UHGV virus genome: UHGV-0351052
Reading direction: 5' to 3' (one strand)
From: a virus
DNA length: 64,000 nucleotides
Part shown: positions 3,705-57,029 of the stretch, piece by piece
Layout of the letters: every line of letters begins with the position of its first letter
How positions within the stretch are numbered: the stretch's first letter is position 1
Notes under the pieces: model-generated
What the model was told of the DNA's origin: nothing
Databases searched by the model: none
What the model saw: the letters and a program-made list of their open reading frames with translations, nothing else
Program-made: the position numbers and the translations under genes

Positions 3705-4493
<789 letters not shown>

Positions 4494-28987: not shown

Positions 28988-30805
28988 CTATGCATGTTTT
29001 ACTCGTTTTACCATTTCTTTCATTTTACCTAAATTCCATGGAACAACGCTAGGAGTTCCAAGATATCCGCATGTTCTTCTTATGGTATTCATCTTTTTAG
29101 GATCAGTTTCTCCACAAATAGAACAAACAAATCCGTTTTCAGTAGGAGTCATTTCATGGGTGCTTCCGCATGTAAAACACTTATCTACTGGCATATTAAC
29201 ACCAAAATAATCTAAATGCTGTGCAGCATAATCCCATACGGCCTCAAGTCCTTTTAAGTTATTTTTCATATCAGGAAGTTCAACATAAGAAATGTGACCA
29301 CCTGTCGCAATGAAATGATATGGCGCTTCACGAGAAATCTTTTCAAACGGAGTAATATTTTCTTCTACTGAAACATGGAAACTGTTAGTGTACCAACCTT
29401 TATCGGTAACATCTTTTACGCTTCCATATTTTTCTGTATCGAGTTTACAGAAGCGATAACAAAGGTTTTCAGCAGGAGTCGAATATAAACTAAAAGCAAA
29501 TCCAGTTCTTTCAGTCCACTGTTTAAGATGAGCATTCATTTTAGTTAAAATTTCTCGTCCAATATCACGACCGACAAGAATATTCAATTCGTGAATACCA
29601 ATGTATCCTAGGGACACTGAACTTCTACCGTTTTTAAATAACTCAATTATGTCGTCATCAGGTTTAAGACGAACCCCGAATGCACCTTCTTGGTAAAGAA
29701 TAGGAGCAACAGTAGCTTTAACTCCTTTTAAGGAACTAATTCTACACATCAAAGCTTCAAAACACAAATCCATTCGTTCATTGAATAATTCAACAAATTT
29801 CTGTTCATTGAACTGTGTTCCAATATAAGAATCTAACGCGATGCGAGGAAGATTCAGTGTTACAACACCAAGATTATTACGTCCATCAAGAATTTCATTG
29901 CCAGTCGAATCTTTCCATACGCTCAAGAAACTACGGCAACCCATTGGAGAAACAGGAACAGATGAACCGGTGATAGCTTTATTGTTCTTAGCCGAAATGA
30001 TGTCAGGATACATTCTTTTACTTGCACACTCTAGAGCAAGCTGCTTAATATCATAGTTCGGATCGTCTTTATAAAGATTAACACCTTCTTCAACGAACAT
30101 AACAAGCTTAGGGAAAATAGGAGTTATCCCATCGCGGCCAAGACCTTTAATGCGATTTTTCAGAATTGCTTTCTGAATCATTCGTTCAGTCCAGTCAGTT
30201 CCCGTACCAAATGTAATTGTTACAAAAGGCGTTTGTCCGTTTGAACTAAAGAGAGTATTTACTTCATATTCATAAGCTTGGAATGCATCGTATACGTCTT
30301 TTTCTGTTTTAGATTGGGCATAATTCAACGCGTCAGCGATTTGCCATTTTTCTGCGTCCTCAATATGTTTTGCATAGGTGTGTTTAACATAAGGAGAAAG
30401 TACTTTATCTACATTCGCAAAAGTTGTTCCGCCATATTGATGGGAAGCAACCTGCGCAGTAATTTGTGCCATAATTGCAGTAGCAACGCCGATTGATTTA
30501 GGAGTTTCAATCTGTGCATTGCCGAGCTTAAATCCGTTTTCAAGCATTCCTTTTAAATCTACTAAACAGCAATTAGTAAATGGAAGAGCAGGGGAATAAT
30601 CAATATCATGGAAATGGATAATTCCGCTTTCATGCGCTTTCATAATAAAAGACGGGACCATATTTTTGGCAATGTGTTTAGACACAATACCAGCCATAAG
30701 GTCCCGTTGAGTTGGAAAAACACGAGAATCTTTATTAGCATTCTCGTTCAAAAGGTCTTTATTAGTTTTATGAATCAATCCTTCAATTTCTTTTTCAATT
30801 GTCAT
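28988..30805 (-). CDS. nrdD: anaerobic ribonucleoside-triphosphate reductase NrdD, uninterrupted (no intron)
   Basis: 605 aa continuous ORF; C-terminal zinc site CFTCGS...CSICG. Confidence 0.9.
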   Translation of the reverse strand: MTIEKEIEGLIHKTNKDLLNENANKDSRVFPTQRDLMAGIVSKHIAKNMVPSFIMKAHESGIIHFHDIDYSPALPFTNCCLVDLKGMLENGFKLGNAQIETPKSIGVATAIMAQITAQVASHQYGGTTFANVDKVLSPYVKHTYAKHIEDAEKWQIADALNYAQSKTEKDVYDAFQAYEYEVNTLFSSNGQTPFVTITFGTGTDWTERMIQKAILKNRIKGLGRDGITPIFPKLVMFVEEGVNLYKDDPNYDIKQLALECASKRMYPDIISAKNNKAITGSSVPVSPMGCRSFLSVWKDSTGNEILDGRNNLGVVTLNLPRIALDSYIGTQFNEQKFVELFNERMDLCFEALMCRISSLKGVKATVAPILYQEGAFGVRLKPDDDIIELFKNGRSSVSLGYIGIHELNILVGRDIGREILTKMNAHLKQWTERTGFAFSLYSTPAENLCYRFCKLDTEKYGSVKDVTDKGWYTNSFHVSVEENITPFEKISREAPYHFIATGGHISYVELPDMKNNLKGLEAVWDYAAQHLDYFGVNMPVDKCFTCGSTHEMTPTENGFVCSICGETDPKKMNTIRRTCGYLGTPSVVPWNLGKMKEMVKRVKHA

Positions 30806-47957: not shown

Positions 47958-48181
47958 ATACTGGCTTCTTTGAGTTTCGTTTTAGCAATAGCTAACTGAT
48001 CGAGGCTTTCAGCATAATTCTTCGCGAGTTCAAAGTCTTCGCAATCATCCCACGCTTCCCAGAATTCATCGTATAAAGCATCAAAGATAAGTCCTAAACG
48101 AACTTCAGCGTCTTTGATAGCATTCACTTTACCGATTTTCTCTTCAGTATGTGGTTTATAACCCTTAATATCTTCAATCAT
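47915..48181 (-). CDS. Vs.4-like protein, candidate Acb2-type cyclic-oligonucleotide sponge
   Basis: Position (second ORF upstream of regB) and size match T4 vs.4, which I recall as the T4 homolog of anti-CBASS Acb2; sequence itself not verified. Confidence 0.4.
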
Positions 48182-48395
48182 ATTTGACTTCCTCACCAGT
48201 ACATAAATCGTATTCAACTAAACGAATAGGTTCATGAATGCCATATCCCTGAACAGAAATTTCTGTCGTGGGATAAATTCCATCAATATCGCCCATATTC
48301 CACGCTTCATTAAATTGCTGTTCGCCTGAATTACTAAACCATTCGGCGAAAGCATTTAGCACATCTTCAGAACCTTCAATAATTATCTTTGCCAT
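48174..48395 (-). CDS. hypothetical protein (73 aa)
   Basis: ORF track. Confidence 0.5.
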   Translation of the reverse strand: MAKIIIEGSEDVLNAFAEWFSNSGEQQFNEAWNMGDIDGIYPTTEISVQGYGIHEPIRLVEYDLCTGEEVKYD

Positions 48396-48757
48396 TACAA
48401 ACTCTCGGTAAAGGTACGAGCGATAACGTCGCGCTGCTGTTCCGGAGTCAGAGAGTTAAAGCGAACTGCATAACCGGATACACGGATGGTCAGCTGCGGA
48501 TATTTTTCCGGATGCTTAACTGCATCTTCCAGAGTTTCACGACGCAGAACGTTAACGTTCAGGTGTTGACCACCTTCAATTTTAACTGTAGGCTGTTGCT
48601 CAATTTCAATTTCACGGGCATGCAAACCGTAGAAAATTTCTGGGTCTACAAAAGAGTCCTCTTTAAAGGTTTTAGAGACAATAATTCGTGCTTGAATACC
48701 ATCTTCAAAATAAATAGTACCTTTATGTGTGCCTTCAAGAATTTGATATGCTTTCAT
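48395..48757 (-). CDS. autonomous glycyl radical cofactor GrcA/YfiD-like protein
   Basis: C-terminus [60 protein letters not shown] with glycyl radical motif RVSGY; coding DNA for this half is GC-rich and host-like. Confidence 0.8.
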
Positions 48758-48764
48758 ATAAACC

Positions 48765-49145
48765 TCAATTAGAAAATAAATTTATCCAAGATTGTTCTTT
48801 AATTAAAAATGGCTCAGAATCATATGCCATTAAACTCTGTGTGATTAGTCCTTTAAAAGGCCCATCAATAAATTCCATGGTAAAATATGGAATTTTATTC
48901 ATTAGCCGTGCATTAGGAGCAGTGCACAAAACTCTGCATCCTTTGAATACACCTTTTTGTAATTTGTATTGCTTGGGATAAAATTCGCTCAAAATGTTAT
49001 TTTTTGCCAAAATTTCAAAATGATTCACCAATTTATTTTTAATAGTTTTTGGCGAAAAATAAAGATATTCGAAAAGCTGAGTGTCTGTCATCATTGCATT
49101 CCGATTACGAAAAACTGTGGACGAGTAATACCACCAATGCAACAT
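48765..49145 (-). CDS. hypothetical protein (126 aa), possibly 3-prime part of a split gene
   Basis: ORF track; overlaps next ORF by 55 nt in another frame. Confidence 0.4.
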
Positions 49146-49678
49146 TTAATATTACAGCAGCAGTGTACAGTGTCAATATGGACACTATAAATCTTATCCA
49201 TATCAGGAGATTTGACAGGCTCATCAATTATATACAAAATTCGCGAAAGCGATAAACCTCTGAACTTGCTTCCTTTATTACCAATAAAACTGCGCACAGA
49301 ATCAGTAAATAAACGAAAACGTATATCATCATTAGAATAACGCGAAAATTCCTTTTTAATATTATCTGCGGAAATTTTAGCGTAAGCTGAAGTATTAGAA
49401 AGAACAATAACTGTTCCACCGTCATACAACCAATTAGCGGCAAAATTAGTTACTGCAGTTGATTTACCGGATTGACGTCCACCATCTATACGAAGTGTGC
49501 AATACTGTTTAAGTAAGTCTTCAAATGGTGGGATATAATCGTTTTTACAAATTTCTTCTACTCTAGCATCAGAATGGTGTGTAAAAGCATTCATCAGGGA
49601 TAGATAAGGACCAGTTAAAAATGTTCTCATTTTGTTCTCTCTAGGTTTGGGCCATTCCATGGCGCATGAATTGTCCAT
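49091..49678 (-). CDS. P-loop NTPase-like protein with terminase-like Walker A (GGRQSGKS) and Walker B (YIIDE); possibly truncated
   Basis: Motifs read from translation; odd Cys-rich C-terminal tail suggests frame disruption. Confidence 0.45.
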   Translation of the reverse strand: MDNSCAMEWPKPRENKMRTFLTGPYLSLMNAFTHHSDARVEEICKNDYIPPFEDLLKQYCTLRIDGGRQSGKSTAVTNFAANWLYDGGTVIVLSNTSAYAKISADNIKKEFSRYSNDDIRFRLFTDSVRSFIGNKGSKFRGLSLSRILYIIDEPVKSPDMDKIYSVHIDTVHCCCNIKCCIGGITRPQFFVIGMQ

Positions 49679-49787
49679 TTCTGTATTTACCCATTACCGC
49701 ACTTGGGCTCGACCTTATTACAGGTTGGCGGGAATCCCTCACAGAATCATGAGGTCCAGGTTGTTCCCATGTTATTTGAATGTAAAT

Positions 49788-49805
49788 AGGCCTATACTTA
49801 GGCCT
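49788..49805 (-). terminator. hairpin downstream of ipIII
   Basis: aggcc-tatactta-ggcct. Confidence 0.45.
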
Positions 49806-49807
49806 TA

Positions 49808-50383
49808 TTAATTACCACGGGCCGCATTAGCAACGGCGTAAGCATACTGAACATTAGCGTCCTTAAACGTACCTTTAGAGGTATCTATTTCTGCCTTAAA
49901 GCCGCCTTTAGCCATAACATCGGCAAATTCTTTACGGAAAGCCATTGCATCAAGACCTTTCCATGATGATTTATGCTTGGCAAATTCAAGACCAGCGTAG
50001 TTGACAGCCTTAGCTAATTTATTATCAATAACCCATTTACCAGCTTTAGGCACAAACACCGGGCCTTTCTGTTTGGAGAATAGTTTTAAATTCCAGCGAC
50101 GAAGGTCACCGTCAGCTTTAACAAAAGCTGCGTCCAAGTTACTAGCAACAACATCTTGAATATGGCCAAATTTAAGCCCATCAACTTCAATATTTAGATC
50201 GGTACGCCAGCGAAGTCCTTCCCAAGCGAAGCCTTTAAAGTCGGAAGCCTTTGTAGCTAAGTACCGTTCAATAGGAGCTGTTTTAGGGTCAAAGCCGTTT
50301 CCTCGGTAAGTCCACTCATCTTTATTAATGCCTTTGGCCTTTTCCACAGAAGCTTCGGCGATAAATTCTTTATACGTTTTCAT
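49808..50383 (-). CDS. ipIII: internal protein III (capsid-packaged, CTS leader MKTYKEFIAEA)
   Basis: 191 aa with canonical capsid targeting sequence; matches T4 IPIII. Confidence 0.8.
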   Translation of the reverse strand: MKTYKEFIAEASVEKAKGINKDEWTYRGNGFDPKTAPIERYLATKASDFKGFAWEGLRWRTDLNIEVDGLKFGHIQDVVASNLDAAFVKADGDLRRWNLKLFSKQKGPVFVPKAGKWVIDNKLAKAVNYAGLEFAKHKSSWKGLDAMAFRKEFADVMAKGGFKAEIDTSKGTFKDANVQYAYAVANAARGN

Positions 50384-54827: not shown

Positions 54828-54962
54828 CCGTTTTGTGAAAAAAATTTTTAAAAAGTTTTAGGGAATTCTAGGGCAGGGAGGGGTAATTAAAAGATAGGAT
54901 AATATATTATAAAGGGTAGAAACTAAATGATACCTAGAGAGGTCCAGAAAGGCCTAGATACC

Positions 54963-54989
54963 AAAAAGCCCCAACCTTTCGGTCGGGGC
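54963..54989 (-). terminator. strong intrinsic terminator ending the tRNA/stable-RNA unit
   Basis: minus strand reads GCCCCGACC-GAAA-GGUUGGGGC followed by UUUUU. Confidence 0.7.
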
Positions 54990-55300
54990 TAAGCCTTGCG
55001 GCAACCTTGTCGGGGTTCCACCTGCTAAGGCAAGTGTTTGTACGAAACGCCGGGATTCGAACCCGGTTATTAAGTAGTTGACGCTACTCAATATTTTTAA
55101 AAGGCCATATCTCGACTATATCCGAACGTTCCGTCAAAAACGCTACTCGGCTTACGGCAAAGATATTTCCTCGAATCGATAATTCGGTGCGCCGTTTCTG
55201 CTGTGATATAAGTGGACATTAGCAAAACATAAAGATTTATTAATGCCAGTCCTTAAACAGGGAACATCAGTCCGACGACTTACCGGTAGCGACCCGGTTT
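54990..55300 (-). ncRNA. putative stable RNA region (T4 rnaC/rnaD species 1 and 2 equivalents)
   Basis: GC-rich, ORF-poor stretch with tRNA-like T-arm element cccgggttcgaatcccgg, downstream of tRNA-Arg and upstream of strong terminator. Confidence 0.35.
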
Positions 55301-55670: not shown

Positions 55671-55747
<77 letters not shown>

Positions 55748-55750
55748 TAA

Positions 55751-56416
55751 TTAAAATTTCATTTTTCGACCTTTAAACCATCCTTCTGGAATTGGGTCAG
55801 TTTTCTTAATACGTTTAGAAACTTTTTCATCTAATGAATGAATCCACATCATACCAAATTGGGAATTCTTTTCGCCCTGTTGATGTTTATTTCTGGCGTG
55901 AGATTCTTTCATTTTATTAATAGTTTCAGGAGTATGGGTCTTACCCAAGAAAGATTTAGTATTTAAAAATTTCTCTCTATACTTAGGATTATCCCAAAGC
56001 TGTTTAAACCTTTCTGAACCCATTTTACGATATTTTTCTTTAAGGTCTGGGTCGTTCTCAAATCTGGTTTTAAAAGCGGCAGCTCCTTTTAAAGAAGCTT
56101 CTTTCTTTTTATCCAAATATTCTTTAGTGTTTAAATGGTCCCAACCACCTTCACCACCTAATTTCAAATTATAAACATCAGAGCGCTTTAAAAACTCTTC
56201 AGTCACAATATTCTTTTCTGACTCAAACATAGAGGTTTTATCGTCAAAGAACTCTAATATTTCTTTAGAAAAATTTTCTATACCATACTTATCTTGGGCT
56301 CTTTTTAATAATTTACCAGAACCCATATATCCATCATCTAAATTTTCGGTAGAATGAGCGCCTATATAGATTTTATTATTAATTTTATTTGTTATTTTAT
56401 AAATGTAATGGAACAT
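55751..56416 (-). CDS. segB: GIY-YIG homing endonuclease SegB
   Basis: 221 aa; N-terminal YIYKITNKINNKIYIGAH GIY-YIG motif; located between tRNA subclusters as in T4. Confidence 0.8.
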   Translation of the reverse strand: MFHYIYKITNKINNKIYIGAHSTENLDDGYMGSGKLLKRAQDKYGIENFSKEILEFFDDKTSMFESEKNIVTEEFLKRSDVYNLKLGGEGGWDHLNTKEYLDKKKEASLKGAAAFKTRFENDPDLKEKYRKMGSERFKQLWDNPKYREKFLNTKSFLGKTHTPETINKMKESHARNKHQQGEKNSQFGMMWIHSLDEKVSKRIKKTDPIPEGWFKGRKMKF

Positions 56417-56457
56417 AAATATCTCCTATTTCTAAGAGTATTTATGTTCTCAAAATA

Positions 56458-56529
56458 TGGCCCTGGGTGGAATTGAACCACCATCTGGCGATTATGAGTC
56501 GCTTGCTTGAACCTTCCAGCTACAGGGCC
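56458..56529 (-). tRNA. tRNA-Ile (anticodon CAU, Ile2-type)
   Basis: Hand-folded; anticodon loop CUCAUAA; last tRNA of the T4 order Gln-Leu-Gly-Pro-Ser-Thr-Ile. Confidence 0.7.
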
Positions 56530-56535
56530 TTGATA

Positions 56536-56608
56536 TGCTGATTGACGGAATCGAACCGCCGACGTCCTCATTACAAGTGAGGTGCTCTACCTACTGAGCT
56601 AAATCAGC
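56536..56608 (-). tRNA. tRNA-Thr (anticodon UGU)
   Basis: Hand-folded: acceptor GCUGAUU, anticodon loop CUUGUAA, T-arm GGCGG-UUCGAUU-CCGUC. Confidence 0.8.
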
Positions 56609-56615
56609 GAAATTA

Positions 56616-56702
56616 CGGAGGCGATAGGATTTGAACCTATGAGTCGCCGGAGCGACTGCCGGTTTTCAAGACCGGTGCATTAAACCACTCTGCCACGCCT
56701 CC
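56616..56702 (-). tRNA. tRNA-Ser (anticodon UGA), long variable arm
   Basis: Hand-folded: acceptor GGAGGCG, anticodon loop CUUGAAA, long extra arm. Confidence 0.8.
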
Positions 56703-56704
56703 AG

Positions 56705-56778
56705 TCTCCGTGGCAGGATTTGAACCTACGACATTCTGCTCCCAAAGCAGACGCTCTACCAAACTGAGCTACACGGAG
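56705..56778 (-). tRNA. tRNA-Pro (anticodon UGG)
   Basis: Hand-folded: acceptor CUCCGUG, anticodon loop UUUGGGA. Confidence 0.8.
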
Positions 56779-56790
56779 TAAATTAAATTT

Positions 56791-56863
<73 letters not shown>

Positions 56864-56868
56864 AAATT

Positions 56869-56955
56869 TGGTACGAGAAGTGGGACTCGAACCCACAAGG
56901 AAATCATTCCGCAGCATTTTAAGTGCTGTGCCTTTACCAATTTGACCATTCTCGC
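56869..56955 (-). tRNA. tRNA-Leu (anticodon UAA), long variable arm, CCA encoded
   Basis: Hand-folded: acceptor GCGAGAA, anticodon loop CUUAAAA. Confidence 0.8.
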
Positions 56956-56956
56956 G

Positions 56957-57029
56957 CTGGGAATAAAGGACTCGAACCTTTGCATCTAGCAGTCAAAGTG
57001 CTATGCCTTACCAACTTGGCTAATTCCCA
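56957..57029 (-). tRNA. tRNA-Gln (anticodon UUG)
   Basis: Hand-folded: acceptor UGGGAAU, anticodon loop CUUUGAC; separated by 1 nt from tRNA-Leu. Confidence 0.8.

Follow-up and report, generated by a model that had tools for sequence, protein, structure and literature searches.

The stretch analyzed here, a window of 64,000 nucleotides (nt) from the virus genome UHGV-0351052, contains on its minus strand an open reading frame (ORF) for a protein of 120 residues, closed by a TAA stop codon, which we identified as the ortholog of vs.6 (protein Y06I, NP_049730) of phage T4. The gene is a mosaic in which a 5′ module of phage type is joined in frame to a 3′ module that matches Escherichia coli grcA almost base for base (Table 1). 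A tblastn search with T4 proteins revealed 118 of 120 identical residues (98.3%) between T4 Vs.6 and the window protein and recovered the T4 gene order on the minus strand (rI, tk, tk.4, vs, vs.1, regB, vs.3, vs.4, vs.5, vs.6, vs.7, vs.8, ipIII, e). The region was >98% identical to many Tequatrovirus (T4-like) genomes, with Escherichia phage vB_EcoM_G8 as the best match (98.9%). By its high identity and its kept position between vs.7 and vs.5, the gene belongs to the T4 vs.6 orthologous group of the Tevenvirinae. An earlier interpretation made from the letters alone (the sequence-only reading) had described a GrcA-like cofactor gene. The kinship was right, and the RefSeq product name of NP_049730 is "autonomous glycyl radical cofactor GrcA," but the known T4 vs.6, whose product is a biochemically characterized spare part, had not been recognized.

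Vs.6 is a small stand-alone protein of ∼14 kDa without a catalytic barrel, with neighbor genes on both sides. Residues 60 to 101 matched Pfam Gly_radical (PF01228) with 67 bits (cut-off, 22.2), and the nuclear magnetic resonance (NMR) structure of YfiD (now GrcA) was found as PDB match 6OWR with an E value of 9e-42. Residues 61 to 120 were identical to residues 68 to 127 of E. coli GrcA at all 60 positions, which bears out the identity over about 60 residues given in the sequence-only reading. In alignments to the 6OWR and pyruvate formate-lyase (PFL) chains, Gly95 in the motif RVSGYAV coincided with YfiD G102 and PFL G734, the radical roles of which have been described (PMC12338860). The N-terminal half showed weak similarity to the disordered YfiD residues 1 to 60, including the motifs ARxIVxK and REhxhE; searched alone against NCBIfam, this half matched no family. 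In YfiD, according to PMC8683613, residues 1 to 60 are disordered and aid both binding to cleaved PFL and activation, and residues 61 to 127 fold like PFL residues 693 to 759. A comparative study found vs.6, with its Gly_radical Pfam match, in 6 of 6 T4-like genomes (PMC1524935).

Table 1. Positions of the vs.6 gene, its modules, and other sites of the window referred to in the text (GC3, GC content at third codon positions)
Feature	Position in window	Strand	Basis or remark
vs.6 (Y06I) coding sequence	48395-48757	-	ORF; tblastn to T4; Pfam Gly_radical; PDB 6OWR match
Phage-lineage 5′ module, gene nt 1-178, residues 1-59	48580-48757	-	GC3 0.21; low identity to E. coli grcA
Putative host-derived conversion tract, gene nt 179-350	48408-48579	-	172/172 bases identical to E. 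coli grcA nt 200-371
GGT codon of Gly95, predicted radical glycine in RVSGYAV	48473-48475	-	Sequence; alignment to YfiD G102 and PFL G734
Phage-type 3′ end (..C GAG AGT TTG TAA)	48395-48407	-	Carries each of the four bases that differ from E. coli grcA; bounds the tract on its 3′ side
GAGG Shine-Dalgarno sequence, five bases 5′ of ATG	48763-48766	-	Direct sequence reading; overlaps the vs.7 TGA stop
vs.7	48765-49094	-	Flanking ORF
vs.5	48174-48395	-	Flanking ORF
vs.8	49091-49678	-	
Gap between vs.8 and ipIII	49679-49807		
Terminator-like hairpin AGGCCT...AGGCCT	49788-49805		
ipIII	49808-50383	-	
TTGACA-16-TAATAT site	49176-49149	-	5′ of vs.7
nrdD	28988-30805	-	
GC-rich stretch	54909-55152		Just 3′ of tRNA-Arg on the transcribed minus strand
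tRNA cluster	55671-57029	-	Eight genes, as in T4
tRNA-Arg	55671-55747	-	In the tRNA cluster

Extent and composition of the host-identical tract

In each of the 5,426 complete E. coli genomes searched, grcA was 97.3 to 97.8% identical to nt 179 to 363 of the phage gene, and the E. coli paralogs pflB and tdcE reached 76 to 80% over the same module. Two common E. coli alleles of grcA, with CGC or CGT, differ at grcA nt 240, and the CGT allele, with CGT at codon 79, occurred in about half of the evenly spaced E. coli rows among the matches listed. Against this allele (strain SK1144), the phage gene contained a run of 172 consecutive identical bases, the longest exact run shared. The only four differences within the module were confined to its last four codons (phage, ACC GAG AGT TTG; E. 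coli, ACT GAA AGC CTG). The phage variants at these sites also occur elsewhere: GAG and AGT in several other T4-like genera, ACC in the Karamvirus CC31, and TTG in other Tequatroviruses. No similarity to E. coli was found 3′ of the vs.6 stop codon.

The 5′ junction was sharp. In a protein-guided codon alignment, identity to E. coli grcA was 43.7% on the 5′ side of nt 179 and 97.7% on its 3′ side, and the 5′ module was 74 to 98% identical to its counterpart in other Tevenvirinae. A breakpoint at aligned site 178 gave a maximum chi-square of 133.5, a value reached in none of 10,000 permutations (largest permuted value, 23.9). The tract thus delimited encodes the structured radical domain (YfiD residues 67 to 124). 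Its 5′ bound is the point where phage-host similarity collapses, just ahead of the stretch encoding the invariant peptide, and its 3′ bound lies in the last few codons. The nucleotide alignment to grcA thereby placed at gene nt 179 the recombination junction that the sequence-only reading had postulated.

Composition changed at the same place. The 3′ module had a GC content of 0.50 and a GC3 of 0.46, versus 0.34 and 0.21 in the 5′ module. The tract alone had a GC content of 0.494, compared with 0.348 on average for the window, and this value was reached by only 0.39% of 172-nt windows. Leucine was encoded by CTG at 5 of 5 tract positions and proline by CCG at 3 of 3, compared with 9% and 16%, respectively, in the long ORFs of the window. 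The GC-rich 3′ half with host-like codons beside an AT-rich 5′ half, as the sequence-only reading had perceived it, was thus confirmed by measurement. When the 64-kb window was compared with the 5,426 E. coli genomes by megablast, the tract alone gave a match, and the remaining 39 kb of the window yielded none.

The identity was specific to Escherichia. The phage module differed from Escherichia at 4 to 6 positions, whereas E. coli differed from any other sampled genus at 14 or more: the E. coli grcA module had 14 differences from that of Citrobacter amalonaticus and ∼30 (of 177 to 180 positions, ∼17% of bases) from that of Salmonella. For codons 1 to 55 of the module, the synonymous divergence (dS, by the method of Nei and Gojobori) between the window and E. 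coli was 0 (0 of ∼42 synonymous sites), compared with 0.44 for E. coli versus Citrobacter, 1.35 for E. coli versus Salmonella, and 1.38 for Cronobacter phage leB versus E. coli. In a neighbor-joining tree of 82 bacterial and 17 phage modules, those of Tequatrovirus and Mosigvirus formed a clade with Escherichia (bootstrap support, 196/200). These results indicate that the mosaic is real and that its 3′ half passed from Escherichia grcA into the phage, the probable mechanism being recombination of the gene conversion type. An artifact of assembly or contamination was considered and ruled out, because the in-frame mosaic with a phage-type 3′ end recurs in >600 independent phage records, including the T4 reference.

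The other windows as GC-rich as the tract consisted of the tRNA cluster and one ORF-free stretch. The latter, one of only three sites in the window as GC-rich as the tract, contained no ORF of ≥50 residues and no Rfam match; it may correspond to the stable RNAs rnaC and rnaD of T4. The tRNA cluster comprises genes for Arg-TCT, Met/Ile-CAT, Thr, Ser, Pro, Gly, Leu-TAA, and Gln and, GC-rich as it is, had no megablast match to the E. coli genomes.

Around vs.6, the genes are co-oriented and tightly packed, and the stop codon of vs.6 shares bases with the start codon of vs.5 (TAATG); this packing suggests that vs.6 is cotranscribed with vs.7 and vs.5. A promoter and terminator scan found 6 promoter-like sites around vs.6, with 6.7 expected after shuffling and hence no excess, and the TTGACA-16-TAATAT site was given no weight. 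The vs.5 ORF of the window has 73 residues and begins at the TAATG overlap; the T4 annotation has 58 residues, of which only residues 17 to 58 aligned (83% identity), and the vs.5 N terminus is variable among Tequatroviruses. T4 has denV (endonuclease V) and ipII in the interval from vs.8 to ipIII. Neither had a tblastn match anywhere in the 64-kb window, and both are hence missing from the T4 position in this phage, where a short gap with a terminator-like hairpin occupies their place.

Host-matched tracts among T4-like phages

With the E. coli module as the query, 629 phage records were retrieved at 95 to 99% identity, among them Tequatrovirus and Mosigvirus records from phages of Escherichia, Shigella, and Yersinia. 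The 5′ start was about the same in every match listed. Two lower modes of identity were seen, one at 80 to 90% (Jiaodavirus, 86 to 88%; Slopekvirus, 80 to 83%) and one at ∼74% (T5-like phages).

In Jiaodavirus, a genus of Klebsiella phages, vs.6 had the same architecture, with a 3′ GC3 of 0.59 to 0.64 beside a 5′ module of 0.23 to 0.25. This module had no close match among 81 bacterial references, and the grcA allele of a Klebsiella sp. metagenome-assembled genome had no close phage match. A metagenome scan with a 32-mer of the Jiaodavirus module retrieved 31 contigs, and 21 of the 27 complete modules represented one bacterial grcA allele, which was carried on contigs of 56 to 57% GC and encoded a protein exactly identical to GrcA of K. 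pneumoniae (GRCA_KLEP7). A Jiaodavirus contig (L113; 39.7% GC) shared an exact run of 158 nt with this K. pneumoniae-type allele. The run started at the same 5′ point as the tract of the window (..ATT|GAAGG..) and ended 25 nt before the stop codon. The reciprocal search with the K. pneumoniae-type module retrieved 77 phage records at 95 to 99% identity, of which the best 40 were all Klebsiella- or Raoultella-type phages of 165 to 168 kb or related records; the same Klebsiella phages were only 86 to 88% identical to the E. coli module. Two residues distinguish the radical domain of E. coli GrcA from that of K. pneumoniae GrcA, and the phages of either group have the variant of their own host.

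A 3′ module with ≥95% DNA identity to grcA of the host genus, joined to a 5′ module of phage type, was thus found in 629 records for E. coli and in 77 for the K. pneumoniae-type allele. Such separate, host-matched tracts argue for at least two independent conversions from host to phage, each matching the host genus, so that on these alignments gene conversion appears to have occurred at least twice and to have followed the host. Both tracts are bounded at the 5′ point where phage-host similarity begins, as homology-limited recombination predicts. The proposal of the sequence-only reading that the gene is a chimera formed by recombination with host grcA was therefore upheld by the absence of synonymous differences, the nesting within Escherichia, the sharp 5′ junction, and the independent tract of the Klebsiella phages. 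A scan of IMG/VR with the phage-type N-terminal module yielded 30 loci and no further host-matched tract.

Two observations on bacterial grcA were made alongside. A 276-kb record, plasmid unnamed4 of Klebsiella sp. WOUb02, contains a full-length annotated grcA, so the gene can reside on large extrachromosomal replicons. In metagenome contig OIEZ01001054.1 (∼3723 to 3754), a GrcA-type N-terminal half is joined to a PflB-like C-terminal end (...SLTKEQQQDVITRTFTQTM); this ORF could be a grcA/pflB chimera or an assembly artifact.

How often the exchange took place within the E. coli phages is a separate matter. Between the window and two Mosigvirus genes, dS was 0.42 to 0.46 in the 5′ module and 0.10 in the tract. 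The tract showed 4 differences from Mosigvirus where ∼13 to 14 were expected (binomial P, ∼4e-4; Fisher P, 0.02), which indicates that it is younger than the split of Tequatrovirus and Mosigvirus or has been homogenized since. An alternative E. coli donor allele for the Mosigvirus-specific variants was rejected, as no E. coli genome has them; their absence implies that they arose in the phage lineage. Both E. coli alleles, CGT and CGC, were found among the phages, and the last four codons formed non-nested mixes of host and phage variants across isolates: the window shares its version with G8, VIPECOOM01 and IME340 have ACT GAG AGT TTG, RB10 has ACT GAG AGT CTG, OES_C-2 has ACT GAG AGC CTG, and T4 has ACT GAA AGT TTG. 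These mixtures would fit, as the weaker part of the argument, a recurrent or patchy conversion within the E. coli phages.

A single conversion in an ancestor of the E. coli phages, followed by phage-to-phage spread through Tequatrovirus and Mosigvirus with no refreshing from the host, would account for the common 5′ junction in all 629 records and for the 3 to 4 private substitutions of the Mosigvirus copies, and T4-like phages recombine readily during coinfection. We nevertheless regard such a history as unlikely. A common junction is also expected from the homology limit, and the independent Jiaodavirus tract begins at the same place; both alleles at nt 240 and non-nested combinations of the last codons occur in phages; and the tract of the window has remained unchanged although the adjoining N-terminal module has the divergence from Mosigvirus given above. 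On balance, we favor repeated recopying of the radical half of vs.6 from the resident grcA, of E. coli type in Tequatrovirus and Mosigvirus and of K. pneumoniae type in Jiaodavirus. The fixation of such tracts might possibly reflect selection for a match to PflA and PflB, repair of a decaying copy, host-optimal codons, or biased recombination.

Proposed function of Vs.6

According to PMC8683613, which summarizes Wagner et al. (2001; PubMed 11444864), no spare part proteins other than YfiD and T4 Y06I have been validated by experiment. As stated there, the PFL activating enzyme installs the glycyl radical on YfiD or Y06I, and PFL that oxygen has cleaved at Gly734 regains its activity in vitro.

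By analogy, the host activase PflA would place a radical on Gly95 of Vs.6, and the activated domain would plug into a host PFL whose own radical domain had been removed by oxygen, restoring the production of acetyl-coenzyme A (acetyl-CoA) and formate during the shutdown of host expression. Because T4 infection silences the genes of the host and breaks down its DNA, host GrcA would not be replenished, and a phage copy would sustain PFL under fluctuating oxygen. Acetyl-CoA from PFL would give ATP through acetate, and the benefit in vivo may include formate as a reductant for the phage NrdD. In work ascribed to Mulliez et al. in 1995, class III ribonucleotide reductases of the E. coli and T4 type reportedly use formate as their reductant.

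The sequence-only reading had proposed a more direct connection, namely, that the spare domain rescues the anaerobic ribonucleotide reductase NrdD encoded in the same window. NrdD is itself a glycyl radical enzyme cleaved by oxygen (Young et al., 1996), and the vs.6 homolog of Aeromonas phage Ah1 is flanked by nrdG and nrdC. That Vs.6 serves as a spare radical domain for phage NrdD instead of host PFL is still very improbable. The NrdD of the window has the glycyl radical motif RTCGYLG near its C terminus, after the Cys-rich motifs CFTC and CSIC, and only R-x-x-G-Y is common to its C terminus and Vs.6. The Vs.6 domain is that of GrcA at all 60 positions and scored 94 bits to the C terminus of PflB, and no NrdD was among its 33 PDB sequence matches. 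The published activity of Y06I is with PFL and its activating enzyme (PFL-AE). Since the radical domain is of the PFL type, direct rescue of NrdD is not supported, and a link between vs.6 and NrdD would more plausibly be indirect, via formate. In Ah1 the homolog is found on L095 (301-684), and in phage ELT4 (L091, 292-708) it adjoins a thioredoxin gene. Such placement indicates that some T4-like lineages have the spare part gene embedded within a cluster for anaerobic nucleotide reduction.

Taken together, it is highly probable that the window encodes a vs.6 ortholog that acts as a spare part for PFL and whose 3′ half was overwritten from Escherichia grcA. The old AT-rich 5′ half of the phage gene would have been kept, and gene nt 179 to 350 replaced via homologous recombination with chromosomal grcA. 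Several observations weigh against parts of this interpretation and of its extension to repeated exchange. The score against the NCBIfam equivalog for GrcA, TIGR04365 (154.9 bits over residues 20 to 120), fell short of the cut-off of 170, owing to the divergent N-terminal half. Both the part that vs.6 would play in an infected cell and the link from formate to NrdD are putative. The species of the K. pneumoniae-type allele was assigned by exact protein match and contig GC, not from a genome record. Recurrence within the E. coli phages is argued from one CGT/CGC site, the patchiness of the last four codons, and dS over ∼40 synonymous sites. The Mosigvirus-specific variants were present in no E. 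coli genome, with best identities of 96.2% and 96.8%. T5-like phages that infect E. coli retain a module only 74% identical to that of their host, which demonstrates that nucleotide identity to the host is not required to carry such a gene. Finally, no phage module was >95% identical to grcA of Salmonella enterica.

Direction of transfer and relation to known systems

Since sequence identity by itself has no polarity, E. coli grcA could in principle have received its 3′ half from the phage, and K. pneumoniae grcA its own from a Klebsiella phage. This is extremely unlikely. The 5′ and 3′ halves of bacterial grcA diverge alike (84.8% and 83.1% identity for E. coli versus Salmonella; 88.7% and 92.1% for E. 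coli versus Citrobacter), so that the 3′ module shows no unusual DNA conservation and follows species history. The tract has the GC3 and codon usage of the host, unlike the adjoining phage module. Karamvirus modules, which are without a host-like tract, are AT-rich (GC3, 0.22 to 0.31) and 36 to 41 mismatches away from any sampled bacterium, and most of the changes private to phage tracts replace G/C with A/T, the trend expected of host DNA that decays toward phage composition. The bacterial gene, moreover, occupies the locus ung-grcA-eamB in the E. coli records examined, and a near-identical copy was present in every one of the E. coli genomes.

Next to no credence can be given to an ancient grcA homolog that came to look host-like through amino acid constraint and convergent codon choice without any recombination: the radical domain peptide is nearly invariant across Enterobacterales and many phages, but phage leB encodes the E. 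coli peptide with 30 nt differences, T5-like coliphages encode a closely related one with 44 to 47 differences from any sampled grcA, constraint yields only ∼83% identity, and the window agrees with E. coli at all synonymous sites, including the non-optimal codons GTA, CAA, and AAG, so that a dS of 0 and the nesting inside Escherichia effectively refute it. The level of identity that the sequence-only reading had named as pointing to an ancient homolog, with a GC skew due to constraint, was accordingly far exceeded.

The vs.6 gene and its biochemical role were already known and do not make the window a new kind of system. The related literature retrieved consisted of functional papers and one comparative genomics note (PMC1524935). 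The nucleotide mosaic and a conversion that tracks the host were not described in the searchable literature, although an earlier mention in older T4 papers is possible. If the proposed history is true, vs.6 would represent a natural, recurrent gene conversion from host to phage in strictly lytic, cytosine-modifying phages that degrade host DNA. The tract would be a molecular record of recent host use and could serve as a simple marker for the recent host genus of a T4-like phage. With one 172-nt stretch in 64 kb, the window would offer a clean natural example of homology-limited conversion from a host into a virulent phage. The pattern further suggests that the phage spare part is kept in step with PFL and PflA of the host, either by selection or by strongly biased recombination. 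Under the fluctuating oxygen of gut-like habitats, the suggested chain would lead from vs.6 via active PFL and formate to the anaerobic ribonucleotide reductase of the phage.

Among known systems, T4 Vs.6 (Y06I) is like the gene of the window in its neighbors (vs.7 on the 5′ side, vs.5 on the 3′ side, with the stop/start overlap), in its mosaic structure, and in its 5′ junction. It differs in having P54 and H73 in place of Q54 and R73, and the 3′ limit of its host-like stretch is shifted by two codons relative to the window. E. coli GrcA/YfiD (P68066; PDB 6OWR) is likewise a small stand-alone protein and has the same 60 C-terminal residues, 172 nt, and RVSGYAV motif. The N-terminal half of Vs.6, in contrast, is only weakly similar and seven residues shorter, with the BLASTP alignment starting at residue 22, and vs.6 lies in an early-region gene cluster of the phage instead of at the chromosomal locus named above. 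The C-terminal radical domain of PflB (PDB 2PFL, residues 697 to 759) has the same fold element and motif as Vs.6 and is the part that the spare protein replaces. PflB, however, is an enzyme of 759 residues, and its DNA is 76 to 80% identical to the tract, with several residues differing.

The GrcA-like genes of T5-like phages (Demerecviridae), Karamvirus, Slopekvirus, and Pseudotevenvirus have the same two-module layout and a near-identical radical peptide. Their 3′ modules, however, are 74 to 84% identical to any sampled host grcA (29 to 47 mismatches per 180 nt), which indicates no recent host tract. A further parallel is provided by T4-like cyanophages, the psbA genes of which are said to be mosaics with patches of host-like composition that arose by intragenic recombination between host and phage, in work attributed to Zeidner et al. 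in 2005 and Sullivan et al. in 2006. That case concerns another gene, host, and habitat, whereas the exchange in vs.6 is confined to one domain and is 100% identical to the current host species. Also unlike the psbA case, the vs.6 tract is found in a phage that modifies its cytosine and degrades the DNA of its host.

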